Positions 1,715 to 32,692 of a DNA stretch of 34,239 nucleotides are shown here, one piece after another. The stretch comes from Acidimicrobiales bacterium (GTDB lineage Bacteria; Actinomycetota; Acidimicrobiia; Acidimicrobiales; AC-14): the NCBI GenBank assembly GCA_050744985.1, contig JBOGIC010000268.1, forward strand, positions 1-34,239. The letters run 5' to 3'. Numbering within the stretch: the first letter of the stretch is position 1; each line of letters begins with the position of its first letter. Made by a program: the position numbers and the translations under genes. The notes beneath the pieces were generated by a model. That model had not been told where the DNA came from and made no database searches. It was given only the letters and a program-made list of their open reading frames with translations.

Positions 1715-3718
1715 ATGGGAACGTTGAACCTAGGGATCTTGGCCCATGTGGACGCCGGGAAGACCAGCCTGACCGAGCGGTTGCTCTACCGCGCCGGAGT
1801 CATCGACGCCATCGGCAGCGTTGACCAGGGCAGTACCCAGACCGACTCCCTAGCGCTGGAACGACAGCGTGGCATCACAATCAAGTCGGCCGTCGTGTCG
1901 TTCTTCCTCGATGACGTCAAGGTGAATCTGATCGACACTCCCGGCCACCCCGATTTCATCGCCGAGGTGGAGCGCGTGCTCGACATCCTCGACGGTGCGG
2001 TCCTCGTGATTTCGGCGGTCGAGGGCGTGCAGTCGCAGACGCGTATCTTGATGCGTGTTCTGCAGCGCCTGCACATACCGACCCTTCTGTTCGTGAACAA
2101 GATTGATCGGCTTGGAGCGAGCTCGGATCGGGTTCTCCAGGACATCTCCGACAAGCTCACGCCGGCGATCATCGCGATGGGCACGACGACCGACTTGGGA
2201 ACGAGAGGCGCCCAGTTCGTCCTGTACGACGAAGGCAACCCTGCCTTCAGGGCGCGCATGGCCGGTGTGCTGGCCACTCGAGACGACGCGCTCCTCGCTG
2301 CGTACGTAGCCGACGAGGCGAGCATTTCGCCTACACAGCTTCGCGAGGCGCTCGCGGCACAGACCAAGCACGCCCTCGTGCACCCGGTGTTCTTCGGCTC
2401 GGCGATCCTGGGTGCGGGTGTCGACGACCTGACGACAGGCATCCGTCAGTGGCTACCTGCAGCCGAGCGCGACGCTGACGGACACGTGGCGGGCACCGTG
2501 TTCAAGGTCGAGCGTGGCCCCTCTCGGGAGAGAATCGCCTTCGTACGCATGTTCTCCGGCACTCTGCGCGTTCGCGACCGCATTCCCGTTCGGGACGGTG
2601 ACAAAGAGAAAATCACGGCCATCAGTGTCTTTGACAACGGCTCGGTCGTCGCAGCCGCGTCGGTCTCTGCCGGCCACATCGCGAAACTGTGGGGGTTGAG
2701 CGAGATCCAGGTTGGCGATGCCATCGGAGAGTTTCAAACGAGCGCGGAGCGACGCCACTTCGCTTCGCCAACGCTCGAGACGGTGATCGTGCCGCGGGAG
2801 GCCGCTCAGAAGAACGCTCTTCGCGCGGCGCTCGATCAGCTTTCCGAGCAAGATCCGCTCATCAACGTGCGGCAAGACGACGTCCGCCAGGAGATGTACC
2901 TGTCGCTGTACGGCGAGGTCCAACGAGAAGTCATTCAGGAGACTCTTGCGGGCGAGTTCGGCATCGAGGTCGAGTTCCGGGGGACGACGACGATCTGCAT
3001 CGAACGTCCGATCGGCACCGGGGCGGCGATCGAGACCCTCCCGGGCGGGCGTTCCTCAGCGCATCCTTTCCTCGCTGGGGTCGGCCTGCGCGTCGACCCC
3101 GCTCCGATCGGCTCCGGTGTCGAGCTCCGACTGGAGATCGAGCGGGGGTCACTACCGCATGCGTTCCTCAAAGCCGTCGAGGAGACCGTGCACGCGACGC
3201 TGCGGCAAGGTCTCTACGGGTGGGAGGTCACCGACTGCACGGTGACGATGACGCACTCAGGCTACTCGCCACGACAGAGCGCGTCCCATGGCACCTTCGA
3301 CAAGAACATGTCGAGCACGGCGGGGGACTTCCGCAATCTCACGCCGGTCGTCCTGATGGACGCGTTGAAGCAGAGTGGGACCTCGGTGCATGAGCCGGTC
3401 CTCTGTTACCGGCTCGAGATTCCGACGGAAACGCTCAGGGCGATGCTCCCCGTGCTCGCACGCTTGCAAGCCGTACCAGGGTCCACCTCTGTCGACGGAC
3501 CCTCGAGCACGCTCGAAGGAACCATCCCTGTCGCTCGCCTCCATGAGCTGCAGCAGCAGCTCCCCGAGCTCACGAGCGGTGAGGGTTTTCTTGAGTCTCG
3601 CTTCGACTCGTATCTGCCCGTCCAAGGGCCAGCCCCGAGTCGCCCCAGGACTAAGCCCGACCCGCTCAAGCGCAAGGAATATCTCCTCTACGTCGTCCGC
3701 CGAGAGTGGATGGACTGA
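1715..3718 (+). CDS. Tet(M)/Tet(O)/OtrA-family ribosomal protection protein (EF-G-like GTPase), 667 aa
   Basis: The N-terminus is MGTLNLGILAHVDAGKTSLTERLL. GTPase motifs G1 AHVDAGKT, G3 DTPGH and G4 NKID are present. A domain IV YSP...DFR loop region is present and the length matches the family. AAGGAA lies 9 nt upstream of the ATG. Confidence 0.85.
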   Translation: MGTLNLGILAHVDAGKTSLTERLLYRAGVIDAIGSVDQGSTQTDSLALERQRGITIKSAVVSFFLDDVKVNLIDTPGHPDFIAEVERVLDILDGAVLVISAVEGVQSQTRILMRVLQRLHIPTLLFVNKIDRLGASSDRVLQDISDKLTPAIIAMGTTTDLGTRGAQFVLYDEGNPAFRARMAGVLATRDDALLAAYVADEASISPTQLREALAAQTKHALVHPVFFGSAILGAGVDDLTTGIRQWLPAAERDADGHVAGTVFKVERGPSRERIAFVRMFSGTLRVRDRIPVRDGDKEKITAISVFDNGSVVAAASVSAGHIAKLWGLSEIQVGDAIGEFQTSAERRHFASPTLETVIVPREAAQKNALRAALDQLSEQDPLINVRQDDVRQEMYLSLYGEVQREVIQETLAGEFGIEVEFRGTTTICIERPIGTGAAIETLPGGRSSAHPFLAGVGLRVDPAPIGSGVELRLEIERGSLPHAFLKAVEETVHATLRQGLYGWEVTDCTVTMTHSGYSPRQSASHGTFDKNMSSTAGDFRNLTPVVLMDALKQSGTSVHEPVLCYRLEIPTETLRAMLPVLARLQAVPGSTSVDGPSSTLEGTIPVARLHELQQQLPELTSGEGFLESRFDSYLPVQGPAPSRPRTKPDPLKRKEYLLYVVRREWMD

Positions 3719-3748
3719 GGTCCAGCCACACCCGTCGGTTGTCGGGCC

Positions 3749-5542
3749 TTACGCAGTGCCCGCGGCATAGTCGGCGAGGGCGGGCGCAAAGTGGGCGACG
3801 CTGTCGTCGAGGCCACCCGGCCGGCTCCGACGCGCCCAGTCGGCCCGGTAGCGTTCCACAAGCCAGGCGAGGTCGGCATGAAGCTCAGCCGCGCTGACCG
3901 AAGCCGCTCCCACCTGAACGAGCAATCGAAGCGCACCGTGGCGCGCCAGCCTGGCGGCAGTGCGCAGCTCCTCGATCATCGTGCTCCCGTCCGACGACCG
4001 TGGGGACGCACCAGACAGATCGATCTCGACGGTTTCGAGCCGATCGAGCACGTCGCCCATCCGCGACGCGTCTAGCGCACCCACTGCGACGTTCGTCTGC
4101 TGAGGGAAAAGGGCGGAGTGAAGCGGGCTGCCATTCATCACGTACTGGCCAGTCTGCCGGCACAAACTGCCGAGTTCCACAAGTGCACGTCCGGCGGTTC
4201 CGGTGGGATCGTTCGTGACGAATCGGCTCACGACGTGGGCGAGGTCGAGCCGCTCATTCGCATCCGCGCACCATGACACGGCGCCGGCATAAGCGATAGG
4301 GGGGTAGCTCACCGAGAGCGGCTGATGATGGCCGCCGTCGCCCCAGTCGGTGAGGAGCAGCCCCCGTGCACCGAGCGTCCGCGCATTCTGTGCTGCGTCG
4401 AGGATGTTCTCCCGGGCGTTGTCGAGCCGGCCAACCAATGAGTTCCACGAAGACGTCCCAGGAGCCACCCAGAATGGGAAGTCGACCGCGGCGAATGGCG
4501 CCGCATTGATGGCGAAGCCTCGGTGAGCGTCCAGGTCGAACCCGAGACTGGCGAGCGTCGCTGCGACCGTCGCCGGGAGGGAGATGTCGCTTTCGCACGG
4601 CGACTCGTAGGTCCAGGCCACGGCGGTGATATCCCCGTTCGGCAGGTGGTCGACCAGGTGAGGGTGTGAACGGAGCATGTCACCCCAGAAGAGGATGCTG
4701 TAGCCCTCGTCCACGAGCGGCGCCATGATCCGGGCAACGTGCTCGACGTACACGAGCTCGGTGCCGACCCGAGCGGCGCGCGCCGCACTCACGCCGCGTC
4801 CAAGATCAAAGGTCTCGTCGCAACCGATGTTGATACGCCCGCTGCGGACGTGGCCGAGCTGTGCGCGGCACAGCTCGACGGCGAACGCGGCGTTCTCCGG
4901 TGTCGGAGCCAGCACGGACGGCGGCCGTTTCTTGCCAGCACCAACGTCGATGCCGTCGCGGCATTCGGCGCGACTGCGATAGGCGTCGTGCCGTAGCCAG
5001 CGTTCCATGTGCCCGAAGGTGTTCTGGTTGACGGCGAGCTCGATGCCCACGGCTGCGCAGCGGCGGTCGAGCCACTCGAGGTCACCACCGGACAGGCCCG
5101 ACGCGTCGCGCCACACTGCCTCGTGGCCCGGGTAGGCGAACGTATGCTCCACGTAGAGCTGAAGATGGTTGAACCGGGCGAGAGCGAGCACCTCCACCAG
5201 GCGGCCGAGCGTCTCCTGGGTCGGAACCCGGTCGCGGCTCACGTCGAGCATGTAGCCGCGAACGGCGATGTCGGGCCAGTCACGCAGGTGCAACGACGGC
5301 AGGGAACCGTCGCCGTCGCGCAGCTGCGCGACGGCCTGCTCACCGTACCGTCGCCCCGCCTCGTCGCCGGCGGCGAGCGTGGCGCGATCGGGGCTGACCT
5401 CGAGTTCGTAGCCCTGCTGCGGCAGTCCCCGGTCGTGTTTGTACACAAGCCGTACGCTCGAGCGAGCAGACCGATCGATGTGGACGAGGTGGCGGGGCTG
5501 AGGAAACAGCTCCGGAACGAGCCGGCTCACGCGGGGTGGCAT
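3749..5542 (-). CDS. Glycoside hydrolase family 20-like protein (putative beta-N-acetylhexosaminidase), 597 aa
   Basis: Motifs are RGYMLDVSRDRVPTQETLGRLVEVLALARFNHLQLYVEHTFAY and INIGCDETFDLG (catalytic D-E pair context). The start lies only 6 nt downstream of the PKS stop on the same strand. Confidence 0.7.
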   Translation of the reverse strand: MPPRVSRLVPELFPQPRHLVHIDRSARSSVRLVYKHDRGLPQQGYELEVSPDRATLAAGDEAGRRYGEQAVAQLRDGDGSLPSLHLRDWPDIAVRGYMLDVSRDRVPTQETLGRLVEVLALARFNHLQLYVEHTFAYPGHEAVWRDASGLSGGDLEWLDRRCAAVGIELAVNQNTFGHMERWLRHDAYRSRAECRDGIDVGAGKKRPPSVLAPTPENAAFAVELCRAQLGHVRSGRINIGCDETFDLGRGVSAARAARVGTELVYVEHVARIMAPLVDEGYSILFWGDMLRSHPHLVDHLPNGDITAVAWTYESPCESDISLPATVAATLASLGFDLDAHRGFAINAAPFAAVDFPFWVAPGTSSWNSLVGRLDNARENILDAAQNARTLGARGLLLTDWGDGGHHQPLSVSYPPIAYAGAVSWCADANERLDLAHVVSRFVTNDPTGTAGRALVELGSLCRQTGQYVMNGSPLHSALFPQQTNVAVGALDASRMGDVLDRLETVEIDLSGASPRSSDGSTMIEELRTAARLARHGALRLLVQVGAASVSAAELHADLAWLVERYRADWARRSRPGGLDDSVAHFAPALADYAAGTA

Positions 5543-5548
5543 TCCACG

Positions 5549-8677: not shown

Positions 8678-11600
8678 TTGCAGCCAGACCCCAGCTGGAC
8701 GAGTGGGCGGCGGTGCACCATGCCGAGCGAGGGCTTGCACGAGACCCTCGCCCGCACGGCCATGGCTCAGCACGACGCAGTGGCCCTGATGAGCCGAGGT
8801 CGGCCTACGACCTACGGAGAGCTCGACAGCACGGCGGACGCCTGGGCGTCCGAGCTGGTGCGGGCGGGCGTGACCCCTGCCGCCTGTGTCCCAATACTGC
8901 TCCCCCGCAGTGCCGAGCTGGTCATTGCGCTGGTTGCCGTCCTGAAAGCGGGCGCCGCGTACGCGCTGCTCGACCCGACGTGGCCCACACGCCGGCTGCT
9001 GGAGGTGATTGCGGATCTCGAGGCACCCCTGCTGCTCACGAGGCAAGGCAGCCTCAGTCTTCCCTGTCTGCCTGTCTGGTCGCCGCCGACACGAGCGATC
9101 GCAGCTCCGCCCGATTTCCGACCGGCGGCGGTCGGGGGCGTTGATCCGTGCTGCGTCTTCTTCACTTCGGGAACCACCGGCCGGGCCAAAGCGGTCGTCA
9201 CTCCGCATCGCGCCACGGCCCGATTGTTCCAGCTCGATACCTTCGCTCGATTCGCCCACGACACGGTGATGCCGTTGGCGGCACCGGTGCCCTGGGATGC
9301 GTTCTCGCTCGAGCTCTGGTCCGTTCTCCTGAACGGCGGAACGTCGCTCATCGTGGATGAGCCGTATTTGTCGGCTCAGGGCTTACGCAGCGCGGTCTCC
9401 GGTTACGCGACCGACACGGTCTGGCTCACGAGCAGTCTCTTCAACATGATTGTGGACGAAGATCTGGATGCCTTCCGCGGGCTTCGCCAGGTGATGACGG
9501 GTGGCGAGCGGCTGTCTGCGAGTCATGTCGGTCGCTTCCTTCGTCAGCACTCCGACATCGTGCTCATCAATGGCTACGGGCCGGTAGAAAGCACGATCTT
9601 CGCCGCCACGCACCGCGTAACTGAGGGCGACACCCGACGGCCCGAGGGGATCCCGCTCGGTCGGCCGGTTGCGGGCACCCAGGTCTATGTCTTGGACGGC
9701 TCCAGGATCTGTGCCGTGGATGAGACGGGAGAGATTTGCATTGCTGGTGACGGCCTCGGCCTGCGCTACCTGGGCGACACCGTCCTCACCGACGCCAAGT
9801 TCGTCTCCGTGCCGATCGACGGCGACGTAGTACGGATCTACCGGACGGGAGATCTCGGTGCATGGGGATCCGACGGCTTGCTCTTCTTCCGGGGTCGGGC
9901 GGACCGGCAACTGAAGATCCGGGGCCATCGGATCGAGGCGGCGGATGTCGAACGACAAATCGAGCGGGTCCTGCCCGTGCGGTCGTGTCGCGTGCTTGCC
10001 CGCCCGGACGACGCCGGCGTGCCTCGCGAACTCGCGGCTTTCTGTGTGCCCACAAACGCAGACGACAGCCTGGAGGACGCAGGGCGGACGCTGCGGCATG
10101 AGCTGGTCGACTCCCAGCGACCCAACGTGATCGTACGAGTCGACGCCTTCCCGTTGACGGAACGGGGCAAGCTCGATGAGCAGGCCCTCCTCGCGATGCT
10201 TCCGCCGATCGAGACGAGTTTGCCCCGCGGGACCGATGGTCTCGCCGAGATCGGGCGGCGTGCCGGGACCGGGGAGGGACCGCAAGAGACGACCGACGCG
10301 GTGGCGCAGGCGTTCTGCGACGTCCTCGGCCGGTCCGCCGTCCCGCTCGAGGCTGCCTTCTTCGACTTGGGGGGCAACTCGCTGGATGCGGGACGGGTTT
10401 GCACCCGTCTCTCCTCCGTCCTCGGCCGCCCGGTGCCACTGGCGCGTTTCTACCAGCACCCGACCGTGAAAGCCCTGACGTCTTGGCTGGAGGTCCCGTT
10501 CACGTCGTCTAGGCAGGGGGTGACGCGCGCCGCGGGCGCGGTCCCGCTGACAGCGATGCAGCTGGTGTTTCTCATGCGCCATCTCGTCGACCCGGCGGAT
10601 CGGACTGGACACTGCCTCCTCATATGGGCCGTCGAAGGAGAGCTCGACCGCGACGCCCTCCAGGCCGCGATCACCGCGGTCCACGAACGGCACGCGCCGC
10701 TACGCGCCGCCTACGAACCCGATCCGAGGCCGGTCGCACGCCTCGTCGACGTGGCAGCGCCTCGCCTAGCGGTGCTGCCCTCCGAATCGTCGGTCGGTGC
10801 CGCGGTCCGGGCGCTACGGAACGAGCTGGCACGCCACCTCGATCCGACGGCAGGTGAGGTGTGGCGCACAGCGTTGGTCCCAGCGGCGGGCGGAGGCGTC
10901 ACGGCGTTCGGATGCGTGGTCCACCACATCGCGTTCGATGGCTGGTCGGAGGCTGTGCTCGCCTCCGATCTGACGGGCGCGTACAACGCGGCCCGCGGCG
11001 GAGAGCAAGTCTCGCCGCCACCGCCATCACTGGCGCGTGCCTACGAGGCGTACTCCGACCGTACGAACAATGAAGAGCTCGCGTTTCACCGCGCGCGCCT
11101 TTGTGCCGAGCTCACGGGGCTTCCCTCCCTACGATGGCCCGCCGGACCGACGGGAGCACCGCGGGGGGTCGGCGTCGCGACGGTGAAGGTTTCCCCGAGC
11201 GTCCTCGAAGGAGTCGACGTTATGGCCGCGGCGGTCGGCGTCACCCGGTTCGTCGTGCTCATGTCCGAATGGGCGAGGACCCTGGCCGAGATCAGCGGTC
11301 AGCGCGACTTTGCGCTGGGAGTGCCCGTCCGCCAGCGCGACAGCACAGGGCTCGAAGGCGCCCTCGGATGCCACATGAACGTGCTATGCATCCGCCTGCG
11401 AGATGGCTCGCTGGACGGTGGGGTGGCCGCGGCGAGGAGCGTCGGGCGCCTCGTTGCTCGGGCGCTCGCCGCGCAGGACGTGCCCCTCGCGGATGTGCTG
11501 CAGTTCGTAAATCCGCCGCGCACCGACCGCCCCCCGCTCTACCAAACGCTCTTTGCGCTCCAGGACAACCCAATCCCCCATCTCGCCCTCGCTGGACTGC

Positions 11601-14040: not shown

Positions 14041-14262
14041 GGTGTGCAGTTCAGTCGGGCCGCACCGATCCCCGCCAATCAGCGCGGCCGGCACGGTCGG
14101 CAATCCTTGAGGCCCGCGTGGACATCCCGACGTTCTTCCGCCGGTACGGGAGACGAGCCACCCAGGCGACACGGCCCGCGGTGGTTGTCGTGAGCGCCGA
14201 GATCGGCGGTCGTCGGCTTCCGCGCTCGCCTCGCCGACGGGCGGTGTGTACGCTGTCCTCCC
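14041..14262. promoter_or_regulatory. Divergent promoter region between the two GT4 paralogues
   Basis: 222-nt gap. TACGCT (TANNNT) at 14249..14254 lies 8 nt before the GTG start at 14263, and no SD is present. This is compatible with a leaderless transcript. Confidence 0.35.
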
Positions 14263-19285: not shown

Positions 19286-19618
19286 TCCCACTCACCTTCG
19301 TGCAAGCGGTGCCGATCCGTCGCCAACGTGCAACTCGGCAGGCCCCAACACCGACGATCTCCATCCAGTGCCCACCGGGAACGACGACCGTCCCTAACGT
19401 TAGCATTCTCAACCTAGACGGGGCTTCGCCCCGGCGACGCCAAGCGGTGTGGTGCGTAGGTTCCGGCTGCGGAAACTCGGTGGAGTTCGCTTGTGTGAGT
19501 GTGTCAAGCGGGACTGGCCCCGGTTAGGGTCCCCGACGGCCGGAGCCTGCGATAACCGGAGCCCGCAGCGTTGCCGAGGTTCTCCCCTGACCATTGACCC
19601 TCGAGGTCGAATGCCGGC

Positions 19619-21218: not shown

Positions 21219-21319
21219 CTTGTCGCATGCTGGCGTCCGTGAACAATCTGGCCTCCACGCCGAACGTTGGTTGTCCGACCGTCTGCGGAACGCCCCGGTC
21301 AGGGCATCTCGATCCCAAA

Positions 21320-23210: not shown

Positions 23211-23247
23211 ATGGTCCCTTCCACTGTTTGTCGCGTTCCAGACGCCG

Positions 23248-23995: not shown

Positions 23996-25027
23996 TCACT
24001 GCCTCACCGGCGCTGTGGTGTGCGCGAGGATTCGGCGCAGCCACGCGATCCGAGTGCGGTCGGCCGCTCTCGAGATGACGGCGTCGGGTGCCCACTGGTC
24101 GAAGCTGTGGAAACCGCCCGACCACACGTGCAGCTCGGCTTGGCCGCCGTCGTGCCAGATGCTCGTGGCATAGATCACGGCCTCGTCCCGCAACGCCTCG
24201 ACGGAGCCGACGTCGATGAACGCGGGCGGAAGACCGGACAGGTCGGTTGCTCGCGCCGGAGCGGCGTAGCACGAGACATCGCGGGTGCCGCGCCGTGCGC
24301 CCAGCAAGGCCGTCCAACCGGCGCGGTTCGACAAGCCGTCCCAGAGTCCCACCCTCGCCATCTGGAACCCAGACGGTGTCTCACACCTGTCGTCGAGCAT
24401 CGGACACTGAAGCATCTGGCCGATCAGTCCGGGCCCGCCGCGGTCGCGGGCCAACAGCGAGATACCGGCTGCGAGCGCTCCACCGGCACTGTTGCCGCTG
24501 ACGATGATTCGTTCAGCATCGAGGCCGAGCTCGGCGGCGTGCTCGGCCAGCCAGACCAGGCCGGCATAGCAGTCCTCCACCGGAGCAGGGTCCCGATGCT
24601 CCGGCGCGAGGCGGTAGTTCACCGCTACCACGGCGAGCTGTAACTCCTCGGCCCGACCAAGTTCCCCGGCCAGCTCGGTGCTGCGGTTGTTCCCTGCGAC
24701 CATACCGCCGCCGTGCGTGCTGTAGACGACCGGGTGCGGCCCAGCCGTCGCGGTGGGGCGGCAAATGATCATGGGAAGGTCGGGCGCGCCAAGGGGACCT
24801 GGAACGTCCCGCTCCTCGAGATCGAACGCACCTCCGCGTCGGATCTCGTCATCGGACATGCTGAGCTCGGCCGTGCGCCTTCGCCGATCTGGAATGAGCT
24901 CGGCCGTGAGCGGGGTCGGCAGGTCCGCGAGAATGGCGCCGAGCGGCGCTGCCAATTCGGGGTCTAACGGCGGCGGCGGGCCGACCCTGCCGCCGTCGAC
25001 GGGGGAGTGGCGCGTGCGGTCGGTCAC
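23996..25027 (-). CDS. Alpha/beta hydrolase, hormone-sensitive-lipase-like (Abhydrolase_3) esterase, 343 aa
   Basis: Motifs are the HGGG oxyanion motif (YSTHGGGMVAG) and the GNSAGG nucleophile elbow. The GTG start overlaps the upstream stop (GTGA at 25024..25027). Confidence 0.8.
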   Translation of the reverse strand: MTDRTRHSPVDGGRVGPPPPLDPELAAPLGAILADLPTPLTAELIPDRRRRTAELSMSDDEIRRGGAFDLEERDVPGPLGAPDLPMIICRPTATAGPHPVVYSTHGGGMVAGNNRSTELAGELGRAEELQLAVVAVNYRLAPEHRDPAPVEDCYAGLVWLAEHAAELGLDAERIIVSGNSAGGALAAGISLLARDRGGPGLIGQMLQCPMLDDRCETPSGFQMARVGLWDGLSNRAGWTALLGARRGTRDVSCYAAPARATDLSGLPPAFIDVGSVEALRDEAVIYATSIWHDGGQAELHVWSGGFHSFDQWAPDAVISRAADRTRIAWLRRILAHTTAPVRQ

Positions 25028-25977
25028 GGCGTGGCGGGCGCGGGATGAGAGCCCTCGACCGCAACCCGGGCCGCCACGGTGATCGTGTGTAGTTGACGGA
25101 CGCTCGGGTGGCGCAGGTGCAGGCTGCGGTACAGACAGCGCGGGCGGCTCGGATTGTCACAGTAGGACGTACGGCCGTGCGAAATGCGCGTGTTGTCGAA
25201 CACGATCGCCTGTCCGGCTTCGAGGGCGAGCTCCGCGAAATGGGGGCTACCGGGAAGGCTGGCGTGCAAAAGGAACCCTACGCCGCGATACAGGTCCGCC
25301 TCGGCAACGCTAACGGGCACCGACCATCGGTCAGTGGCCGTCACCGAGTACCCGCAGACCAACTGGTGCTCCTGGACGGTGAACGCCGGCCCAGCGTTCA
25401 CATCCCTGCAACCGTTGATGTTCGCCTGGCGAATGAGGGCGCCGGGTGTGGCGAGCGCCGCCGCCGCCGGTGCGTCCACAGCCGCGAGTTGGGCGTAGGC
25501 GGCCGACGCGTTGAACAGTATGGTCTCGCCGCCCTGTGCCGCGGGCGCCTCGCACAGCAACACCGACACCTTTACGAACCCGATCTCCTGCAGCGTGCCG
25601 TCGCAATGGAGCGCCAAGCCCACGGTCCGCTCGAACGACGGATGTCGCGCCGTGGCGACATCGGCTGCTGCCGCGGAGATCCGGGCGACGGTTGCCACGG
25701 GCTTGCCGTTCGTGGCGTACAGCGGAGGGACGAAGGGAGCGCCCAGGTCGAATGATTCGGCGAGCGCCAGCAACGTCTCGGCGGTGACGCGGTGCGGGTC
25801 CAGTTGGATGACGGCAAAGCCATGTCGCTCGTACCGATCGACGACCTCAGCGCGGGCACTTGCGCTGATTGTTCCCGCGTTCGTCGCCGACACCGGATCA
25901 GCGGGGAAGTTCTCGAAGGTGGTGCTCACCGCCGCGGCCGCAGCCATTACCTGATCGAAGCTTACGGCGTTGTGCAT
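25024..25977 (-). CDS. TauD/TfdA-family Fe(II)/2-oxoglutarate-dependent dioxygenase, 317 aa
   Basis: Motifs are LALHCDGT (HxD) and FDNTRISHGRTSY (distal His/Arg). Start chosen at ATG 25977, with GAGGAGG 9 nt upstream. Confidence 0.75.
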   Translation of the reverse strand: MHNAVSFDQVMAAAAAVSTTFENFPADPVSATNAGTISASARAEVVDRYERHGFAVIQLDPHRVTAETLLALAESFDLGAPFVPPLYATNGKPVATVARISAAAADVATARHPSFERTVGLALHCDGTLQEIGFVKVSVLLCEAPAAQGGETILFNASAAYAQLAAVDAPAAAALATPGALIRQANINGCRDVNAGPAFTVQEHQLVCGYSVTATDRWSVPVSVAEADLYRGVGFLLHASLPGSPHFAELALEAGQAIVFDNTRISHGRTSYCDNPSRPRCLYRSLHLRHPSVRQLHTITVAARVAVEGSHPAPATP

Positions 25978-26024
25978 CGTGGGTGACCTCCTCGCGCGAT
26001 CGGCTTTCCTGGGATCTTCATGGC

Positions 26025-27353
26025 TCAGAGCACGTGCTGGACCGCGCGAGGAGCGGAGCACGGATCCGGGCCGACGACGAAGGCATCGTCCGTAAGGGCG
26101 ATCGCCGGCGAGGGATCGCAGCTCGTGAAGTGCAGTTCGGCGAGGGGGTCTCCCCTCGTGACGCGCTCACCAACCCGACGACGAAGGATCAGTCCGGCGG
26201 CGTGGTCGAGTTTGGCGCCCTCGACCATCCTGCCCGCACCGAGGCGCAGAGCGGCCGTCCCGATCGCGCGGGGATCGACGGCTTGGACCCACCCAGACGA
26301 CGTCGCCGTGATCACGTGCCGGTTCGGTGCCGACGGGAGCCGGCCCAGTTCCGTGAGCTGACGTGCGTCGCCCCCTTGGGCCCGCGCCCATCGGAGGAGT
26401 TGATCCCGTGCGGCTCCGCTGTCTATCGCGCGGGCGACGCGCTCGTACGCCGCTCCGGGTGTCAGGTCGGGATCAGCGCTCTGCAGCATGAGGCCGGCAA
26501 CGGCGTCACACACCTCCGACAGCCCCGGAACGTGACCGCCCTCCAAGACGTGGAGCGCCTCTTTGATCTCGAGGGCATTTCCGACGGCGTAGCCGAGGGG
26601 TTGGCTCATGTCGGTGAGCACCGCTCGGCAGGAAAGCCCGAATAGTCCAGCAAGCTTCACCATCGTCTCTGCAAGCTCGGTTGCCGCGGCGGGATCGGGA
26701 ATCAGCGCTCCGGGTCCGGTTTTCACGTCCAGAACAAGACGAGTGGCACCGATCGCAACCTTCTTGCTGATGATGCTGGCGGCGATCAACGGGATGCTCG
26801 CCGCGGTGCCCGTCAGGTCCCGCAGCTCGTACGTCGCCCAGTCACCCGGTACGAACTGGGGTGTGTGGCCGGTGATGACCATTCCGGCCTCACGCGCCAC
26901 GCGGCGAACGTCGGCGACGCCGAGGTCCAGCCGGAGGCCTCGGACACACTCGAGCTTGTCAACGGTTCCGCCGGCATACCCCAGGCCCCGTCCGCTCATC
27001 TTCACGACGGTGAACCCACAGGCTGCCACAACGGGAACGACGACGAGCGTGACCTTGTCGCCGACGCCTCCCGTGCTGTGCTTGTCGACGACCGGGCCGA
27101 TGCCGCTGAGATCCAGCCGTACCCCGCCGGTCACATACGCACCGGTGAGGGCGGCCGTCTCCTCGATGGTCATCCCTTCGCAGGCCACTGTTGCCAGCCA
27201 TGCGGCCATCTGGTAGGCGGGGATGCGGCCGGCCACGAAGTCGAGGACCACACTCCGGATCTCGGCAGGCTCCAACGAGATGCCGGACCGCTTCCGGGTG
27301 ATCGAATCGACGACGCCTACGGACGCAGAATCGGACAGCACCTGCGGGAGCAC
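26025..27353 (-). CDS. Thymidine/pyrimidine-nucleoside phosphorylase family protein, about 442 aa
   Basis: Motifs are DKHSTGGVGDK and MSGRGLGYAGGTVDKLE (family signature). Start chosen at GTG 27353, 7 nt after the aminotransferase stop. The longer ORF to 27431 would overlap that gene. Confidence 0.85.
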   Translation of the reverse strand: MLPQVLSDSASVGVVDSITRKRSGISLEPAEIRSVVLDFVAGRIPAYQMAAWLATVACEGMTIEETAALTGAYVTGGVRLDLSGIGPVVDKHSTGGVGDKVTLVVVPVVAACGFTVVKMSGRGLGYAGGTVDKLECVRGLRLDLGVADVRRVAREAGMVITGHTPQFVPGDWATYELRDLTGTAASIPLIAASIISKKVAIGATRLVLDVKTGPGALIPDPAAATELAETMVKLAGLFGLSCRAVLTDMSQPLGYAVGNALEIKEALHVLEGGHVPGLSEVCDAVAGLMLQSADPDLTPGAAYERVARAIDSGAARDQLLRWARAQGGDARQLTELGRLPSAPNRHVITATSSGWVQAVDPRAIGTAALRLGAGRMVEGAKLDHAAGLILRRRVGERVTRGDPLAELHFTSCDPSPAIALTDDAFVVGPDPCSAPRAVQHVL

Positions 27354-27360
27354 GTCGGCT

Positions 27361-28653
27361 TCAGCCAGCTCGCGCCGCCGCGACGGCGTACTCGATCCGA
27401 TCGGCGATGGCCGTGATGCCCTCGTCGCCAATCGTGAGCGCGGGCACGGCCATCATGGTGTCGCCCAGTTGTCGCAGCAGCAGTCCTTTGTCCTCGGCCC
27501 GGGCAACGGCTCGGCTCGCTGCGTCCGCCGAGCACATCTCGACGACGAGTACCAGCCCGAACCGTCTGACGTCGACAACGTCGCCAATCCCTGCCAGCCC
27601 GCCGAGCCGATCGACCAACAGCCCTCCGAAGTGTTCGGCCCGTTCCGGAAGGCTCTCCTTCTCGAGAACGTCGAGCGTCGCCAGCGCGGCAGCGCAGCCG
27701 ACCGCGTGGCCCGAAGTCGTGTGACCGTATCGGAGGCCACCGATGAGCGGTTCGTTCTCGAAGGTGTCGTGAATGTGCCGCTGCACGGTGACTGCCGCGA
27801 TGGGCACATAGCCCCCGCTCAGGCCCTTGCTCGACACGAGGATGTCCGGTTCGACCGCCTCCCGATGGCAGGCGAACATCCGGCCCGCACGCCCGTACGC
27901 TGTAAAGACCTCGTCGAGGATCAGCAACGCCCCGTATGTATCGCACAGCTCGCGTAGTCCTCGGAGGAAGCCGTACGGCAACACCACACCGCCGCCGACA
28001 TTGAGGAATGGTTCGACGACAACTGCCGAAGGCTGCGCGCTCGCGTCCTCCTCCAACGCATTGCGGAAGGCCTCGAGGAGTAGCGGAAGCGACTCAGGAC
28101 GGCGCAGGTCCCGCGGGCTCACTGGGAGGTCGACGAAGGTCACGGGCAGTGGGCTCTGGAACGGGTGCCCGACCCGAGGCAGTCCCGACAGGCTCCTGCT
28201 GATCACCGTCGAACCGTGGTAGCCGCGCGTGAAGGTCACGACCCTCGACCGCGGCTCGCCGACGTGCGACCAGTACTCGGCAGCGATCAGGACGGCTGCC
28301 TCGATTCCTTCGGATCCACTGTTGACGAACAGTGTCTTCGAAAGCGTCTCCGGCAGGTAGGAGGAGAGCCGTTCGGCGAGGAGTCCGGCCAGTTCGTGGC
28401 TCGCAACGGACAGGTCGACGCCGTGCAGCTGCGATATCTGCTCGCTCACGGCGCGTGCCACGTCCGGATGCGAATACCCGCACGTCGCACCGAGCGACAG
28501 GCCGTCGATGAACTCCCTTCCGTCGACGTCCCAGATCCGGTAGCCGTCCCCGTGCGAGAACATCAGCCGTGCACGATCCGCGCTCAGCGGTGACCACGTG
28601 TGCCACACGTGACGCCGGTCCCGACTCCGGACTGACTCGGGGCTAGCGGTCAT
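27361..28653 (-). CDS. Class III PLP-dependent aminotransferase, 430 aa
   Basis: Motifs are FVNSGSEGIEAA, LILDEVFTAYGRAG and VSSKGLSGGYVPI (Schiff-base Lys context). Confidence 0.85.
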   Translation of the reverse strand: MTASPESVRSRDRRHVWHTWSPLSADRARLMFSHGDGYRIWDVDGREFIDGLSLGATCGYSHPDVARAVSEQISQLHGVDLSVASHELAGLLAERLSSYLPETLSKTLFVNSGSEGIEAAVLIAAEYWSHVGEPRSRVVTFTRGYHGSTVISRSLSGLPRVGHPFQSPLPVTFVDLPVSPRDLRRPESLPLLLEAFRNALEEDASAQPSAVVVEPFLNVGGGVVLPYGFLRGLRELCDTYGALLILDEVFTAYGRAGRMFACHREAVEPDILVSSKGLSGGYVPIAAVTVQRHIHDTFENEPLIGGLRYGHTTSGHAVGCAAALATLDVLEKESLPERAEHFGGLLVDRLGGLAGIGDVVDVRRFGLVLVVEMCSADAASRAVARAEDKGLLLRQLGDTMMAVPALTIGDEGITAIADRIEYAVAAARAG

Positions 28654-29392
28654 CGGGGACGCTTTGACGTTCGAGGGTTTCTCGGAGCAGGGCGTATGGC
28701 GGGTCGGACACGAGGTAGAAGTGATCGCCGGACAGGGTCTGCTGGCAGAACTCGCCGAGGGTCAAGTCGCTCCATCCGCGCTGGTCGGCGTCGGCGTCGG
28801 CATCGCCGACGATCGTCGTCACCGAGCAATGCAAGCGCGGTTCCGGCTCCATCACGTAGGCGTGGAACATGCGCCCGTCGCTGAGAATGTAGGGCAGGAC
28901 AAGTTCCTGGAAGATGGGGTCCGCGGCCAGCTTGGGATCCGTGCCACCGAGGCGGACGAGCTGCTCGATTGTCGTATTGTCGTCATCGGCTACGTCGGGC
29001 GCAGCCGTGCGGACCGGGGACACGCCATCGCGGGAGCCAGAAGCGAAAAGGTGGAACGGTTGAACGCCCCGCGCCTCGAGCGTCCTGGCCGTCTCGAGGG
29101 CGACCACGGCGCCCATGCTGTGCCCGAACAGCGCGATTGGGCGGTCGGCCATCGGCTCGAGGGCACAGGCGATCTCGCCGGCGAGCGCGCGCAGATCCGT
29201 AGGTGGTCGTTCGTCGATGCGCTCAGCGCGGCCGGGGTACCGAACGGCATGTACTTCGACTTCGGGCAAGTGGCGCGCCCATTGGCGAAAGAACGAGGCA
29301 GACCCACCGGCGTGGGGAAAGCAGATGAGGCGCCGCGGCGGCTCCGTACGCGAAACGGTGCACTGCAGCCACGTTGAGTGAGTCGTCGTCAT
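28643..29392 (-). CDS. Type II thioesterase, 249 aa
   Basis: Motifs are LICFPHAGGSASFF and GHSMGAVVA. The ATG overlaps the A-T stop (ATGA at 29389..29392). Its 3' end overlaps the aminotransferase start by 11 nt. Confidence 0.9.
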   Translation of the reverse strand: MTTTHSTWLQCTVSRTEPPRRLICFPHAGGSASFFRQWARHLPEVEVHAVRYPGRAERIDERPPTDLRALAGEIACALEPMADRPIALFGHSMGAVVALETARTLEARGVQPFHLFASGSRDGVSPVRTAAPDVADDDNTTIEQLVRLGGTDPKLAADPIFQELVLPYILSDGRMFHAYVMEPEPRLHCSVTTIVGDADADADQRGWSDLTLGEFCQQTLSGDHFYLVSDPPYALLRETLERQSVPDDR

Positions 29393-31371
29393 GTAGCTGG
29401 CTCTGGTTCGGCCCGCTGGCGCCGTGCCAGGACCGCGCTGGCCCGGGCGTCACTATCCTGCCGCCTCGGCTCAAGGGAATCGACCGGCGCCGATCTGTCA
29501 ATGCGAAGCAGTTCCGCCTGGGTAGACACGGTCGTGTGCCGAAAAAGGGCGACGATGGATGGCCGCGTCCCGGTGTGGCATTCGAGTGCATCCTGGAGCC
29601 GGAACATGGCAAGCGAGTGGCCGCCGAGATCAAAGAAGTTGACGTCGACGGGCACTTCGGACAGGTTGAGCACCTCGGCCCAGGCGGCAGCCACCAGCGC
29701 CGCGGCATCCCGGTCGAAGTCGATGGCGGCCGCGGGCGTGGGATCGGGGCGAGCCACCGAGTCGTCGACGCTGATGCGCAGGAGGTTTCGGTCGACCTTG
29801 CCGCTGACGGTGATCGGAAAACCATCGAGTATGCGAATCAGCGCGGGGACCATGACGTTCGGCAGTCGGTCGCTCAGGTGTCGCCGCAGCGTCTCCGCTG
29901 AGATGACGCACGACGCGACGACGAAGCCGACCAGATCGGTGCCCGCGCTGTTCGCCACGACGACTGCGTCACGAACGCCTCGTACGGCGCGCAACGCCGC
30001 TTCGACCGCATCGAGCTCGACTCGGTGCCCCCGGATTTTGACCTGATGGTCCAAGCGGCCGAGAAAGTCGAGTGTGCCCTCGCGGTTCCAGCGGGCGCGG
30101 TCACCGGTTCGGTACATCCGAGCTCCTGGTTCGCTGGCGAAGGGGTCGTCGACGAAAGCCTGAGCGGTGGCGTCCGGACGACGGAAGTAGCCCCGCGCCA
30201 CCCCCGCGCCGCCGATGAACAGCTCACCCTCGGTACCCCGCGGGACCAGCTGCCCCTCGTCGTCTAGGACGTAGAGCCAGGCCCCCGGCACGGGCGTCCC
30301 GATCGACACCGGCGCCGGAGCGTCGAGGCGCAGGAAGCTGGCCCACACCGTCGCCTCGGTCGGACCGTATTCGTTGACGAGGGTCACTGGCCCCGTGTGA
30401 AGGGCGAAGTGCCGCTCCACCAGCTCCTGGTGCAGCAGCTCTCCGGCGACCGTGACGGTCTCGAGCGACCGCAGGCGCCAGAGACCGAGGCGCTCGGCGG
30501 CGTCGAGCACGAGGCTGTAGAGGGCGGGGACGCAAAGCAGACGGGTGACGCGGTATCGCTCGACGAGCTCAACCAGTCGCGTGGGGTCACGGACCTCATC
30601 GGACGTGGCGACGACGAGGCAGCCCCCCGCAGTCAGGGTGCCCCAGAGGCCAGCGACCGAAGAATCAGACGCCAGAGGGGAGACGAGGAGGAAGACCGGC
30701 GTCCCGCCGTAGACCGAACGGCGTGCCAGCGTCGACGCCGAGAGGTGACGATGTTCGACGACGACACCCTTTGGTTCGCCTGTGCTTCCCGACGTGTAGA
30801 TGATGTATGCCACGTCGTCGGACCGGACGGGAACGGCAGGGAAGTCGGCCGGCGAATGCTCCGTTGTGCTCCCCCGCTCGAACCCGTCGATCACCGCGAC
30901 GATTGGCAGCCCGAGCACACCGAGGCTGTCCTGAACGTGGCGGCTGACAACGACGCCAGCAACGTGCGCGTTGTCGAGCACCTCGGCGATGCGCGCCTGG
31001 GGTTGTCTCTGATCGACCGGTACGTACGCCGCGCCCGCGCGAAGAATGCCAAGGACGGCAGCCACCATCGGCGTTGACGGCTCGGCCAGGATGCCGACGC
31101 GGTCTCCCCGACGCACGCCGTTGACGGCGAGCTGCGCGGCGATGCGAGCGGCCCACGCGTCCAGCGCGCCATAGCTGATCGCGCCGGCAGCGGTCTGGAC
31201 CGCGGTGCGTGTCGGGTTGGAGCGCGCGAACTCGGCTACCAGCTCGTGAACCGGGGCGTGGCCAGTCGGCGGTAGCAGCCTGCCGCGCCCGATGGCGAGC
31301 GGCCCGTCGCAGTCCTCGCTGCCGAGGACCGCCTGGTCGCGCGGAGCGTCAACCGGTTTGCGCGATGCCAA
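29389..31371 (-). CDS. Stand-alone NRPS adenylation-PCP didomain protein, about 660 aa
   Basis: Motifs are LRAGAAYVPVD, YIIYTSGSTGEPKGV, NEYGPTEAT, YRTGDRARW, GRLDHQVKIRGHRVE and PITVSGKVDR. PCP motif is FFDLGGHSL (Ser codon 29614..29616). There is no C or TE domain. The start is a TTG and uncertain. Confidence 0.9.
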   Translation of the reverse strand: MASRKPVDAPRDQAVLGSEDCDGPLAIGRGRLLPPTGHAPVHELVAEFARSNPTRTAVQTAAGAISYGALDAWAARIAAQLAVNGVRRGDRVGILAEPSTPMVAAVLGILRAGAAYVPVDQRQPQARIAEVLDNAHVAGVVVSRHVQDSLGVLGLPIVAVIDGFERGSTTEHSPADFPAVPVRSDDVAYIIYTSGSTGEPKGVVVEHRHLSASTLARRSVYGGTPVFLLVSPLASDSSVAGLWGTLTAGGCLVVATSDEVRDPTRLVELVERYRVTRLLCVPALYSLVLDAAERLGLWRLRSLETVTVAGELLHQELVERHFALHTGPVTLVNEYGPTEATVWASFLRLDAPAPVSIGTPVPGAWLYVLDDEGQLVPRGTEGELFIGGAGVARGYFRRPDATAQAFVDDPFASEPGARMYRTGDRARWNREGTLDFLGRLDHQVKIRGHRVELDAVEAALRAVRGVRDAVVVANSAGTDLVGFVVASCVISAETLRRHLSDRLPNVMVPALIRILDGFPITVSGKVDRNLLRISVDDSVARPDPTPAAAIDFDRDAAALVAAAWAEVLNLSEVPVDVNFFDLGGHSLAMFRLQDALECHTGTRPSIVALFRHTTVSTQAELLRIDRSAPVDSLEPRRQDSDARASAVLARRQRAEPEPAT

Positions 31372-31600: not shown

Positions 31601-31846
31601 TGCAGATGAAGAAACATCGCTGCGAGGGACGAGGACGACGCTCACAGTGACCGGGCTGTCCGTTTAGATGACGGGAAACAGGCAACGAAACCGGGCCGCA
31701 TCCGAGGTGGACGACGGCCACCGCCTCGTAACTTCGACGAGTACGCTCCTGCGCAACGCCCTCCCGACTCCGAGGAACGATGCACCGAAGCTGGGTGTTG
31801 TTCCCGCCACGACACAACGACCACGCGCGGGCACAAAGGAGCGATC

Positions 31847-32692
31847 GTGCAACGAGAGGCCCTGAACGTCGTGTTCGCAGTGGACGACAACTACGCCGTC
31901 GGGGCTGCCGTCGCGGGACGGTCCATCCGAATGAACCTCCTTGACGACACGGCTTGCCTCAGATTCCACGTCATCGACGGAGGTCTGAGCGTTGATGTGC
32001 GCTCGTCCCTGATCGATGCACTCAGCCGCCTCGGAGAGACGCAAACATACATTGTGCAGGACGGGCTGGTTCTTGGCGATTGCTGGCGGGCCGCGTCGCG
32101 AAGTGGCGGTCACTACACGTCAGCGATACTCGCACGGCTTCATCTCAGCGAGGTCCTGCCCGATGACGTCGAGCGCGTCGTGTACCTCGACGCGGACACG
32201 TTGGTATTGGACGACCTCGCGCAACTCTATGCGCTTGACCTGGGCAGCGCAGGAATGGGTGCTGTCATAAATCAAGGATCTGAGACTCGATGCTTGGTCA
32301 TCGATGAATCCGCCCGAGAATACCCGTACGGCGCCCAACCGCCAGGGTACTTCAACTCTGGCGTCCTTATCATCGACATGAACAAGTGGCGGGCGGACGA
32401 AGTAACTCAGCAGGCGCTGTGGTTATATCGTCGTTTCGGTCTGAAACTCCACAGCCCGGACCAAGATATTCTGAACATCATCTTTGCCGGCAGATGGAGA
32501 AGTCTGCCCGCGAAATGGAACAAGATGATCGAGGTCCACAAGAAGTACGACGAGCACCGTACTAGTTACCTCACTCGTCGTGAAGGAATTGTGCATTACG
32601 TCGGGCGAGTGAAGCCATGGCACCGTGAGTTCCCCCACCGCTCGCTCTTGGATCTGTACTTGGAGTATTGGCCGGCCGGCGGACCACTCTGA
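31847..32692 (+). CDS. GT8-family glycosyltransferase (RfaJ/GspA-like), 281 aa
   Basis: Motifs are NVVFAVDDNYAVGAAV, VVYLDADTLVLDDL (DxD), GYFNSGVLIIDMNKWR and DQDILNIIF...LPAKWN. GTG start with AAAGGAG 5 nt upstream. GC and codon usage are clearly lower (tta, aaa, ata, aat, tct codons). Confidence 0.85.
   Translation: MQREALNVVFAVDDNYAVGAAVAGRSIRMNLLDDTACLRFHVIDGGLSVDVRSSLIDALSRLGETQTYIVQDGLVLGDCWRAASRSGGHYTSAILARLHLSEVLPDDVERVVYLDADTLVLDDLAQLYALDLGSAGMGAVINQGSETRCLVIDESAREYPYGAQPPGYFNSGVLIIDMNKWRADEVTQQALWLYRRFGLKLHSPDQDILNIIFAGRWRSLPAKWNKMIEVHKKYDEHRTSYLTRREGIVHYVGRVKPWHREFPHRSLLDLYLEYWPAGGPL

Follow-up and report, generated by a model that had tools for sequence, protein, structure and literature searches.

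The window analysed here is an entire contig of 34,239 nucleotides (nt) from an Acidimicrobiales bacterium (JBOGIC010000268.1, assembly GCA_050744985.1; G+C content 66%), occupied for the most part by a gene cluster of secondary-metabolism type. A six-frame listing of open reading frames (ORFs), together with codon-position G+C, gives 22 genes, those of the cluster and its edge being numbered g1 to g21 (Table 1); domains were called by Pfam and NCBIfam scans of the window proteins. Broadly, the cluster joins a small assembly line of nonribosomal peptide synthetase (NRPS) and type I polyketide synthase (PKS) proteins with a trio of adjacent genes of nucleoside type (aminotransferase g18, phosphorylase g17 and TauD-family dioxygenase g16) and with candidate self-protection genes. 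This gene set is seen again in about 33 loci of other genomes, so that its grouping is far beyond chance. Because these genes co-occur in many genomes in different orders, the PKS/NRPS genes (5.5-13 kb) and the nucleoside-type genes (17.4-31.4 kb) form one conserved pathway family, not juxtaposed loci. A preliminary description of this DNA had proposed a single cluster; the co-occurrence of PKS/NRPS and nucleoside genes across genomes bears that out for these genes, but not for six accessory genes treated below.

Relatives were sought with g16 as the anchor, since it is the most specific gene of the window (its best homologue is only 66% identical). A profile built from 27 homologues of g16 was run against 185,579 species genomes and JGI metagenomes, where it picked up 24 and 20 loci, respectively. 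About 33 of these were of sufficient length for a comparison, which used tblastn of all window proteins (±10 kb) and Pfam-annotated neighbourhoods; the loci are cited by numbers with the prefix L. The genomic loci belong to Streptomyces, Micromonospora (KC213 and KC606 among them), Actinoplanes/Paractinoplanes, Dactylosporangium and Amycolatopsis, to Pseudonocardiaceae, Streptosporangiaceae and Micromonosporaceae metagenome-assembled genomes (MAGs), and to two low-G+C Rickettsiales MAGs; a locus in a Mycobacterium MAG (L002) was found by protein search. The family is spread over at least six actinobacterial families, with remnants in Rickettsiales symbionts, and its cultured carriers (Streptomyces hoynatensis KCTC 29097, Dactylosporangium roseum NRRL B-16295 and several Micromonospora strains) make it open to experiment.

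Conservation within the family can be described in three tiers. The first is the trio g18-g17-g16 itself, almost always adjacent and in that order. The second comprises a stand-alone adenylation-thiolation (A-T) didomain of histidine (His) type, g20, and the thioesterase (TE) g19, located upstream of the trio in about 15 loci. In the third tier, g15, g11, g4, g5, g3, g14, g13, g9, g12 and g1 are found repeatedly, arranged in various ways. Esterase g15 comes after the trio in nearly every case, beside the TauD gene (orthologues at 53-75% identity in about 18 loci), and orthologues of the family 2 glycosyltransferase (GT2) g11 (44-66% identity, about 15 loci) are usually followed by an Inositol_P phosphatase. 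Orthologues are also found for PKS g3 (50-64% identity, 7 loci), for the short-chain dehydrogenase/reductase (SDR) g14 (56-67% identity, 7 loci), for the APH-family kinase g9 (45-53% identity, at least 7 loci), for the LamG protein g12 (6 loci) and for methyltransferase g13 (L006/L029, L010, L020, L036, L043 and L049), while the NRPS-P450 pair g4-g5 is kept in L028, L043, L044, L049, L023 and L025. Gene order from g20 to g13 is exactly that of the window in the metagenomic locus L036. In Streptomyces sp. NPDC003247 (L029; JBIAPF010000014, about 48-69 kb), the NRPS gene is divergent from a run of PKS, A-T, TE, aminotransferase, phosphorylase and TauD genes, accompanied by LamG, GT2, Inositol_P, esterase, SDR, methyltransferase and ABC transporter genes; in S. 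hoynatensis (L001/L007; RBAL01000003, about 292-313 kb) the order is esterase, SDR, PKS, A-T, TE, aminotransferase, phosphorylase, TauD, an EF-G-like GTPase and TetR. The earlier reading had recognised no characterised cluster in this gene set, and our literature searches likewise returned neither a description of it nor a characterised counterpart, MIBiG not being part of the comparison.

Table 1. Features of the 34,239-nt window, with the evidence for each call.
Feature	Position	Strand	Evidence and remarks
Left boundary, group II intron debris	1..974	+	Pfam; NCBIfam TIGR04416 partial
RVT_N fragment, left edge	1-339	+	Pfam
Maturase GIIM fragment, left edge	311-859	+	Pfam
Group II intron domain V/VI RNA matches	336-412 and 876-974		Rfam RF00029, 57 bits each
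Left boundary, ISL3 transposase C-terminal fragment (last quarter)	1052..1546	+	PF01610, NF033550; profile positions 280-370 of 370 only
g1, Otr(A)/Tet(M)-like ribosomal-protection GTPase	1715..3718	+	NCBIfam NF012153, Otr(A) model
g2, divergent GH20/GH84-like hexosaminidase-like protein	3749..5542	-	Pfam Glyco_hydro_20b, 30.8 bits
g3, type I PKS, ketosynthase-acyltransferase-carrier, 998 aa	5549..8545	-	Pfam
g4, adenylation-thiolation-condensation NRPS	8720..11779	+	Pfam
g5, cytochrome P450	11780..12967	+	PF00067
g6, GT4 glycosyltransferase	13021..14172	-	Pfam; likely start 14040
g7, GT4 glycosyltransferase	14263..15297	+	Pfam; third-position G+C 0.71
g8, PhoD-like phosphatase	15482..17431	+	PF09423; likely start 15572
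g9, APH-family kinase	17404..18366	+	PF01636, 137 bits
g10, weak GT-A/GT2-like protein	18437..19291	-	PF13704, 22 bits; third-position G+C 0.69
g11, GT2 glycosyltransferase	20016..21218	-	PF00535; DAD motif
g12, LamG_3 (concanavalin-like) protein	21179..22129	+	PF13385; likely start 21320
g13, S-adenosylmethionine (SAM) methyltransferase	22443..23345	-	Pfam; start uncertain (orthologues ~250 aa)
g14, SDR	23248..23985	-	adh_short and KR domains
g15, Abhydrolase_3 (hormone-sensitive-lipase type) esterase or amidase	23996..25027	-	Pfam; HGGG, GNSAG motifs
g16, TauD-family Fe(II)/2-oxoglutarate dioxygenase	25024..26061	-	PF02668; likely start 25980
g17, pyrimidine nucleoside phosphorylase	26025..27431	-	TIGR02644
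g18, class-III aminotransferase	27361..28653	-	PDB 7qzj match
g19, thioesterase	28643..29392	-	PF00975, 152 bits
g20, stand-alone A-T didomain	29389..31371	-	Pfam
g21, GT8 glycosyltransferase, right edge	31847..32692	+	PF01501
Right boundary, [NiFe] hydrogenase large subunit, C-terminal 437 codons, runs off contig	32926..34239	-	PF00374, NF033181

Every domain call of the preliminary inventory was reproduced with Pfam and NCBIfam, with some changes of detail. Of its two GT2-type genes, g11 keeps that status with PF00535, whereas g10 reaches only 22 bits with PF13704 against a cutoff of 27.5; the GH20 match of g2 is present but weak and divergent, its catalytic domain falling below the Pfam cutoff and its best PDB GH20 match having E=4e-8. 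The LamG_3 protein g12 was absent from that list. The longest PKS and NRPS ORFs overlap by about 580 nt on opposite strands; on the evidence of local third-position G+C and translation, the PKS start was moved to 8545 (MARDRSLDIAV..., with the ketosynthase from residue ~9) and the NRPS start to 8720, leaving a divergent intergenic (promoter) region of 174 nt. PDB searches with GT2 g11 and APH g9 gave generic relatives only.

In the pathways to A-90289, caprazamycin and muraymycin, the LipL, LipO and LipP steps turn uridine monophosphate (UMP) into 5-amino-5-deoxyribose-1-phosphate; the function of the LipL-type enzyme Cpz15 of caprazamycin is given in PMC9814697. One operon of the window holds the same three enzyme types as the LipL-LipO-LipP-LipM-LipN route (A-90289; Cpz15/Cpz13 in caprazamycin; Mur16/Mur20/Mur26 in muraymycin), namely a TauD/CAS-type Fe(II)/2-oxoglutarate dioxygenase, a class-III aminotransferase and a pyrimidine nucleoside phosphorylase. 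The protein encoded by g18 matches SapH (PDB 7QZJ) with E=1e-122 and about 52% identity over 420 aa, the next PDB match being at 1e-54, and it keeps the catalytic Lys and the N-terminal WHxW region. From pseudouridine- and uridine-5'-aldehyde, SapH makes the corresponding 5'-amines; with uridine-5'-aldehyde, which yields 5'-aminouridine, this is the LipO reaction, and SapH is only 37.7% identical to LipO (PMC10127198). Judged by its sequence, g18 is a class-III aminotransferase of the nucleoside-5'-aldehyde type (SapH/PumG/LipO). Phosphorylase g17 scores 424.8 bits with TIGR02644 (cutoff 409) and matches PDB 1brw with E=6e-97, as expected of a pyrimidine nucleoside phosphorylase of the LipP-type family, a specificity for 5'-aminouridine being only predicted.

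The third enzyme of the trio, g16, carries an H152-x-D154...H295 triad that is invariant in 27 homologues, and its gene is downstream of the aminotransferase and phosphorylase genes wherever these are present. We propose that g16 is LipL-like and would convert UMP to uridine-5'-aldehyde, an assignment that rests on genomic context; homologue searches, among them one by HMMER with the 27-sequence profile, and the cluster names of 10 distant representatives gave only generic "TauD/TfdA" names. The loci L013 and L017 go one step further than the window, as their TauD gene is directly followed by a gene for a GalU-like sugar-1-phosphate uridylyltransferase (PF00483; TIGR01099 at 219 bits, below cutoff), which corresponds to the LipM step. 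In these two loci (L013 10001-12505, Paractinoplanes rhizophilus; L017 5925-11896, Micromonospora sp. C95), the GalU-like enzyme is divergent, and ahead of the trio stands a conserved protein of 442 aa that matches nothing in Pfam, NCBIfam or PDB and is a candidate for a novel aminoribosyltransferase. In the window, the conserved GT2 g11 is a candidate for the LipN-type aminoribosyltransferase role. The SHMT-family transaldolase (LipK/Mur17) is absent from the window and from the annotated relatives. Two further loci (L041 and L049) keep the aminotransferase and TauD genes without the phosphorylase, in the manner of jawsamycin-type logic.

Methyltransferase g13 may act on the product of g18. 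Its best NCBIfam match is the daptide N-methyltransferase (80 bits, below cutoff), and g13 may N-methylate the amine made by g18. The latter also has a notable sub-cutoff NCBIfam match to the daptide aminotransferase; the daptide methyltransferase/aminotransferase pair installs and N,N-dimethylates a primary amine.

Upstream of the trio, the A-T didomain g20 has the specificity code DSACTAEVW, which reads DSAC[ITV]AEV[WF] in 16 orthologues. One published His code, DSALIAEVWK, for which tolerance of beta-hydroxylation is noted (PMC12283262), is a single position away from the orthologue code DSACIAEVW and two positions from the window code, and g20 is predicted to activate L-histidine. The g19 gene overlaps that of g20 by 4 nt and its product shows a GHSMG motif; in L002 and L004 both are fused as A-T-TE. 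This arrangement recalls the A-T protein NikP1 and the type II thioesterase NikP2, which release beta-hydroxy-His on the way to the imidazolone base of nikkomycin (PMC4147253). The preliminary description had seen no assembly-line TE, which was a misreading, g19 being the natural release enzyme or a NikP2-like one; because the split-line reading set out below uses g19 for release, the problem of a missing release domain is removed.

The same observations open a different explanation, in which g20 to g16 would be a nikkomycin-X-like operon: the TauD enzyme would hydroxylate His on the carrier (in place of the P450 NikQ), the TE would release beta-hydroxy-His, the pyridoxal-phosphate (PLP) enzyme would help to form an imidazole or imidazolone base, and the phosphorylase would join this base to ribose-1-phosphate (the NikR role), the product being a nucleoside with a His-derived base. 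The His-type code and its tolerance of beta-hydroxylation, the NikP1/NikP2 precedent, the tight operon of A-T, TE, aminotransferase, phosphorylase and TauD genes in about 15 loci, and the existence of A-T-TE fusions all speak for it. Yet at least six loci (L009, L010, L013, L017, L018 and L020) have the trio without the His-type A-T or TE, the GalU-like uridylyltransferase after the trio in two loci points to a sugar-1-phosphate product, and g18 is 52% identical to a nucleoside-5'-aldehyde aminotransferase. Furthermore, the solved TauD-family relatives of g16 are not amino-acid beta-hydroxylases, CAS, VioC and AsnO matching it only at E ~0.3-1. It is the main mechanistic rival, and we consider it quite unlikely. 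A role of the TauD enzyme solely as hydroxylase of carrier-bound His was down-weighted in view of the loci whose trio lacks the His cassette and of the GalU-like enzyme that accompanies it in some of them. Some likeness to the NikP1/NikP2/NikQ system does persist, as the window has a His-type stand-alone A-T beside a type II-like TE together with a uracil-salvage enzyme; unlike in nikkomycin, the P450 is coupled to g4 instead of the His A-T, a nucleoside phosphorylase takes the salvage role that the phosphoribosyltransferase NikR has there, and the A-T is probably also the second module of a split NRPS.

Besides g20, the assembly line comprises g4, taken as the NRPS initiation module, and g3. 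The A domain of g4 has the code DALLMGGIF (DALL[MVI]GG[IV]F in orthologues), the nearest codes being aliphatic ones such as DALWIGGTFK; its carrier motif is GGNSL, and its C-terminal condensation (C) domain is intact (HHIAFDG). The P450 gene g5 is translationally coupled to g4 (0-nt gap), has a normal Cys-ligand loop (LGVGEHVCIG), and its product probably hydroxylates the carrier-bound amino acid. PKS g3 is a minimal module without ketoreductase (KR), dehydratase (DH) or enoylreductase (ER) domains; its ketosynthase (KS) shows the TACSSS, HGTAT and NVGH motifs of a Cys-His-His triad, its acyltransferase (AT) shows GHSLG and a malonyl-like RAFHS, and its carrier shows GGDSL. By motif, the KS, AT, carrier, A, T and C domains are all competent, and a release enzyme (g19) is present. 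The simplest collinear reading, with the domain order deduced from sequence, would be a split line A-T-C ‖ A-T(His) -> KS-AT-carrier -> TE, in which we propose that the terminal C domain of g4 can pair in trans with g20, and SDR g14 is a candidate trans-acting ketoreductase.

Turning to self-protection, g1 aligns over its full length, including all five EF-G-like domains, with the ribosomal-protection proteins (RPPs) Otr(A) and Tet(M), and its GTPase G motifs are intact. Its scores of 732.7 bits with NF012153 (tet_protect, cutoff 775) and 731 bits with the Otr(A) model (cutoff 900) are below both curated cutoffs, and, in contrast to these proteins, it is linked to a cluster family that is neither of tetracycline nor of type II PKS kind. 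Within 10 kb of the TauD gene, an RPP homologue is found in the window and, at varied positions and orientations, in L007, L012/L014, L015, L022, L028 and L039; such proximity is seen in at least 7 differently arranged loci, where one or two RPP copies per 8-Mb genome would by chance account for about 0.2 cases among 33 loci. We read this co-location as the repeated recruitment of an RPP for resistance, which in turn hints at the ribosome as the target of the product.

Alternatively, g1 could be a neighbouring intrinsic gene and the product not directed at the ribosome, but for instance an MraY-type or other nucleoside-mimic inhibitor. Homologues of g1 number more than 8000, the best 120 being at 66-71% identity; the nearest (67-71%) are common genes of soil actinobacteria, two of which were examined and sit in ordinary chromosomal contexts. 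In addition, g1 is the outermost gene of the cluster, beside mobile-element debris. All known aminoribosyl pathways make MraY inhibitors (PMC4902027, PMC9814697). Against this stand the recurrent RPP-TauD proximity described above and the absence of the GlyU-forming transaldolase that defines the MraY-inhibitor core, and we judge this alternative fairly unlikely. A cluster-specific clade of RPPs was considered for g1 and rejected, its nearest homologues being common and outside such clusters: the association is one of repeated co-location, not of co-divergence. An APH-family kinase gene also lies close to both of the nearest g1 homologues examined outside the cluster family (L031 6571-7518 and L032 8952-9845, directly divergent in L032), which hints at a wider RPP-APH pairing in soil actinobacteria.

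The APH-family kinase of the cluster, g9, has intact HGDxxxxN and DFG motifs and is a candidate for cryptic phosphorylation or self-resistance; an APH-type kinase is likewise present in the caprazamycin and muraymycin clusters (Cpz27/Mur28). Phosphatases of three unrelated families occupy equivalent positions: 12 loci have Inositol_P, L010 and L020 have PhoX, and the window has the PhoD-like g8, a candidate substitute for the Inositol_P or PhoX enzymes. The recurrence of APH and the equivalent positions of three unrelated phosphatase families point to a conserved phosphorylation/dephosphorylation step.

Several characterised systems share parts of this gene content. Relative to the aminoribosyl pathways, relatives L013 and L017 add the GalU-like enzyme, while the window is without the GlyU transaldolase (LipK/Mur17/Cpz14), a nucleotidyltransferase and a proven ribosyltransferase, and its trio sits in a His-containing NRPS-PKS line with an RPP GTPase, not in MraY-inhibitor chemistry. 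Pseudouridimycin biosynthesis provides the closest solved relative of g18 (SapH/PumG, 7QZJ), the 5'-amine made by SapH being then acylated by amino acids. The window differs from it in having no pseudouridine synthase (PumJ), no flavin oxidase (SapB/PumI) and no ATP-grasp ligases (L003, L010 and L020 have one); moreover, its aldehyde would come from a TauD-type enzyme and its phosphorylase removes the base. In jawsamycin (FR-900848), LipL- and LipO-type enzymes occur with a type I PKS whose product acylates the nucleoside 5'-amine; that PKS is iterative and is accompanied by a radical-SAM cyclopropanase, without NRPS, phosphorylase or RPP, whereas the window has a single non-reducing KS-AT-carrier module downstream of two NRPS modules. 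Puromycin and A201A follow the Pur10/Pur4/Pur7/Pur3 logic of 3'-amino-nucleoside formation, with kinase self-resistance (Ard2). GFO/IDH/MocA oxidoreductase, DegT aminotransferase and Inositol_P monophosphatase genes, reminiscent of Pur10, Pur4 and Pur3, are found in one sub-clade of relatives (L011, L012, L014, L016, L021 and L030), most of which also have a PIG-L-like protein and two cupins, L016 and L021 having a TP_methylase-domain protein as well; APH-type kinases are a further point of likeness. The GFO/IDH/MocA, DegT, Inositol_P and TP_methylase genes are absent from the window and no Pur6-type synthetase was identified, so the resemblance to puromycin/A201A is one of family level only. 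In sum, the cluster works like a cross between three known systems, combining the 5-amino-5-deoxyribose (ADR) sub-pathway with a His module of NikP1/NikP2 type and a short NRPS-PKS line; it is not a member of the GlyU/MraY-inhibitor clusters (no LipK, no LipM, no proven LipN), nor of the nikkomycin, pseudouridimycin or jawsamycin clusters.

The explanation that we favour, with somewhat better than even confidence, is that the region represents, in complete form, a rare but recurring and apparently unstudied family of actinobacterial biosynthetic gene clusters with LipO/LipP/LipL-like amino-sugar supply, a split NRPS-PKS line and self-protection. In this scheme, g16 would oxidise UMP to uridine-5'-aldehyde, g18 would convert the aldehyde to 5'-amino-5'-deoxyuridine, and g17 would split the latter into uracil and 5-amino-5-deoxyribose-1-phosphate. 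Meanwhile, g4 would load an aliphatic amino acid, which the coupled P450 g5 probably hydroxylates while it is carrier-bound, and the C domain of g4 would condense this residue onto the histidine loaded on g20; g3 would then add one malonyl unit, SDR g14 would reduce the ketone, and g19 would free the chain, either hydrolytically or by passing it to the 5-amino group of the sugar or nucleoside. Tailoring could be carried out by the conserved g11, g12, g13 and g15 and by the lineage additions g6, g7, g10, g21 and g2. The kinase g9 and a phosphatase (PhoD-like g8 here) would sustain a self-protection cycle of phosphorylation and dephosphorylation, and the Otr(A)-like g1 would protect the ribosome, in which case the product would inhibit translation. 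A bolder proposal, that the products of the family are small glycosylated antibiotics of a new class, peptidyl-polyketide aminoriboses or aminonucleosides that inhibit the ribosome and whose producers are protected by an RPP GTPase and a kinase/phosphatase pro-drug cycle, we regard for now as unlikely.

The aminoribosyl cassette (LipL/LipO/LipP logic) is not known so far outside the pathways to uridine-derived MraY inhibitors. If it is indeed wired to an NRPS-PKS line that contains His, nucleotide-derived amino-sugars would have a wider range of uses than is known today. The bolder proposal, if true, would provide the first use of such a cassette outside MraY inhibitors, as well as the first case of a non-tetracycline natural product with self-resistance of ribosomal-protection type. 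The recurrent Otr(A)-like GTPase and APH kinase lead to a testable target prediction, the ribosome, and offer a handle for resistance-guided discovery; should Tet-type RPPs protect against a non-tetracycline scaffold, this would be relevant to where a clinically important family of resistance proteins came from and to what its spectrum is. The value of the system would rise sharply if a ribosome-targeting aminoribosyl peptide-polyketide were confirmed.

Several observations weigh against the favoured explanation. The nearest PDB relatives of g16 are DfmD, TmpA, BBOX and FrbJ, which are phosphonate or betaine hydroxylases. In L028/L044, L023 and L025, the TauD orthologues accompany PKS, NRPS and P450 genes but have no aminotransferase, phosphorylase or His cassette within 10 kb, contexts that fit neither a strict LipL nor a strict His-hydroxylase role. 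Pfam scans of the window genes found no NTP_transferase (LipM-type) domain, and the window has no proven LipN-type ribosyltransferase, leaving the fate of the amino-sugar phosphate unexplained. The code of g4 matches no assigned code, the window contains neither transporter nor regulator, and the ordinary contexts and edge position noted above for g1 count here as well. Lastly, homologues of g2, g6, g7, g8 and g21 occur in none of the about 33 relatives, and one of g10 only in L008 (48% identity).

These six accessory genes invite the reading that the locus is composite, with only the conserved core forming the pathway and the GT4 pair, g8, g10, g21 and g2 being unrelated glycan/envelope or hitch-hiking genes. 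Besides their absence from relatives, the G+C content at third codon positions (GC3) of g7, g10 and g21 (0.68-0.71) is below that of the core (0.77-0.82), and the GT8 gene g21, with the lowest GC3 of the cluster genes (0.68), is separated from g20 by a 475-nt gap and adjoins the flanking hydrogenase gene, so its membership is doubtful. Other features of the same genes point the opposite way: g2 lies 6 bp downstream of PKS g3 on the same strand; g7, g8 and g9 form one co-directional unit in which g8 overlaps the conserved APH gene; the block sits between the conserved P450 and APH members; phosphatases of other families stand at the equivalent place in relatives, making g8 look like a functional replacement; and g8 belongs to no separately conserved locus, its close homologues being only 3 in 5.8 billion proteins, all on contigs of 2-4 kb. 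Membership of the accessory genes rests on this operon structure, and we find a composite locus rather unlikely. The independent envelope-glycan locus at 13-22 kb that the preliminary description had envisaged as a counter-case does not hold for 17.4-22 kb, where APH, GT2 and LamG are conserved family members. A distant g8 homologue in L035 (6962-9493, protein P0207) is fused to a LamG_3 domain, the domain family of g12, and PhoD-like and LamG functions may thus be linked.

At its edges, the cluster is limited on the left by intron and ISL3 debris and on the right by a [NiFe] hydrogenase large subunit gene, flanks that had been described before and were found again with Pfam, NCBIfam and Rfam RF00029. 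Within positions 1-974, two complete domain V/VI matches lie 540 nt apart, interleaved with RVT_N and maturase fragments, and an RVT_1 domain is not present; the debris looks like nested or tandem truncated intron copies, not a single intron. The hydrogenase fragment carries a DPCMPC motif and its gene is outside the cluster: its GC3 is 0.97 (GC1 0.58, GC2 0.44) against 0.68-0.82 for the cluster genes, both having about 66% overall G+C, and the break in codon usage is sharp, at about 32.7 kb (GC3 from about 0.78 to 0.97). Because of this break and of the mobile-element debris at the left edge, the cluster is probably a foreign island acquired horizontally; flanking direct repeats or attachment sites were searched for and not found. 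The cluster extends from 1.7 to 31.4 kb, possibly to 32.7 kb, and is complete, its reading frames all being intact. The earlier suggestion of an extension beyond the window is not needed, as the window is the whole contig and the cluster within it ends at mobile-element debris on one side and at a break in composition on the other.

That the preliminary description saw no MbtH-like gene, transporter or regulator was confirmed: a motif search of the six frames gave no MbtH, and no regulator or transporter is found among the window genes. As relatives carry transporters and TetR regulators, this absence is lineage-specific. It could also be taken, together with the debris at the left edge, the missing Inositol_P phosphatase that relatives have and the 724-nt stretch between g10 and g11 (19292-20015) without a convincing ORF, to indicate an inactive remnant brought by mobile elements, decaying after loss of transporter and regulator. 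However, none of the core genes is truncated in comparison with its orthologues and no catalytic motif that was examined is damaged; we hold such decay to be highly improbable. A tRNA-Glu(TTC) called by ARAGORN at 19927-20002, inside the cluster, was dismissed as a false positive, Rfam finding no tRNA there even at E up to 1.

Some relatives depart from the common pattern. The 41.6-kb contig of a Streptosporangiaceae MAG (L028/L044; ERZ27313809 k141_1429364) carries, in the 20 kb covered, PKS, NRPS, P450, esterase, SDR, APH and RPP genes with two TauD paralogues, along with luciferase-like, GFO/IDH/MocA, PhyH and AP_endonuc_2 genes. The two Rickettsiales loci, L023 (Rickettsiaceae MAG, 30% G+C) and L025 (Rickettsiella sp., 36% G+C), contain homologues of PKS, A-T-C NRPS, P450, TauD, APH, LamG/GT2 and esterase at 32-53% identity, without aminotransferase or phosphorylase, and several of the L025 homologues are short fragments; this suggests cross-phylum transfer, possibly followed by decay.

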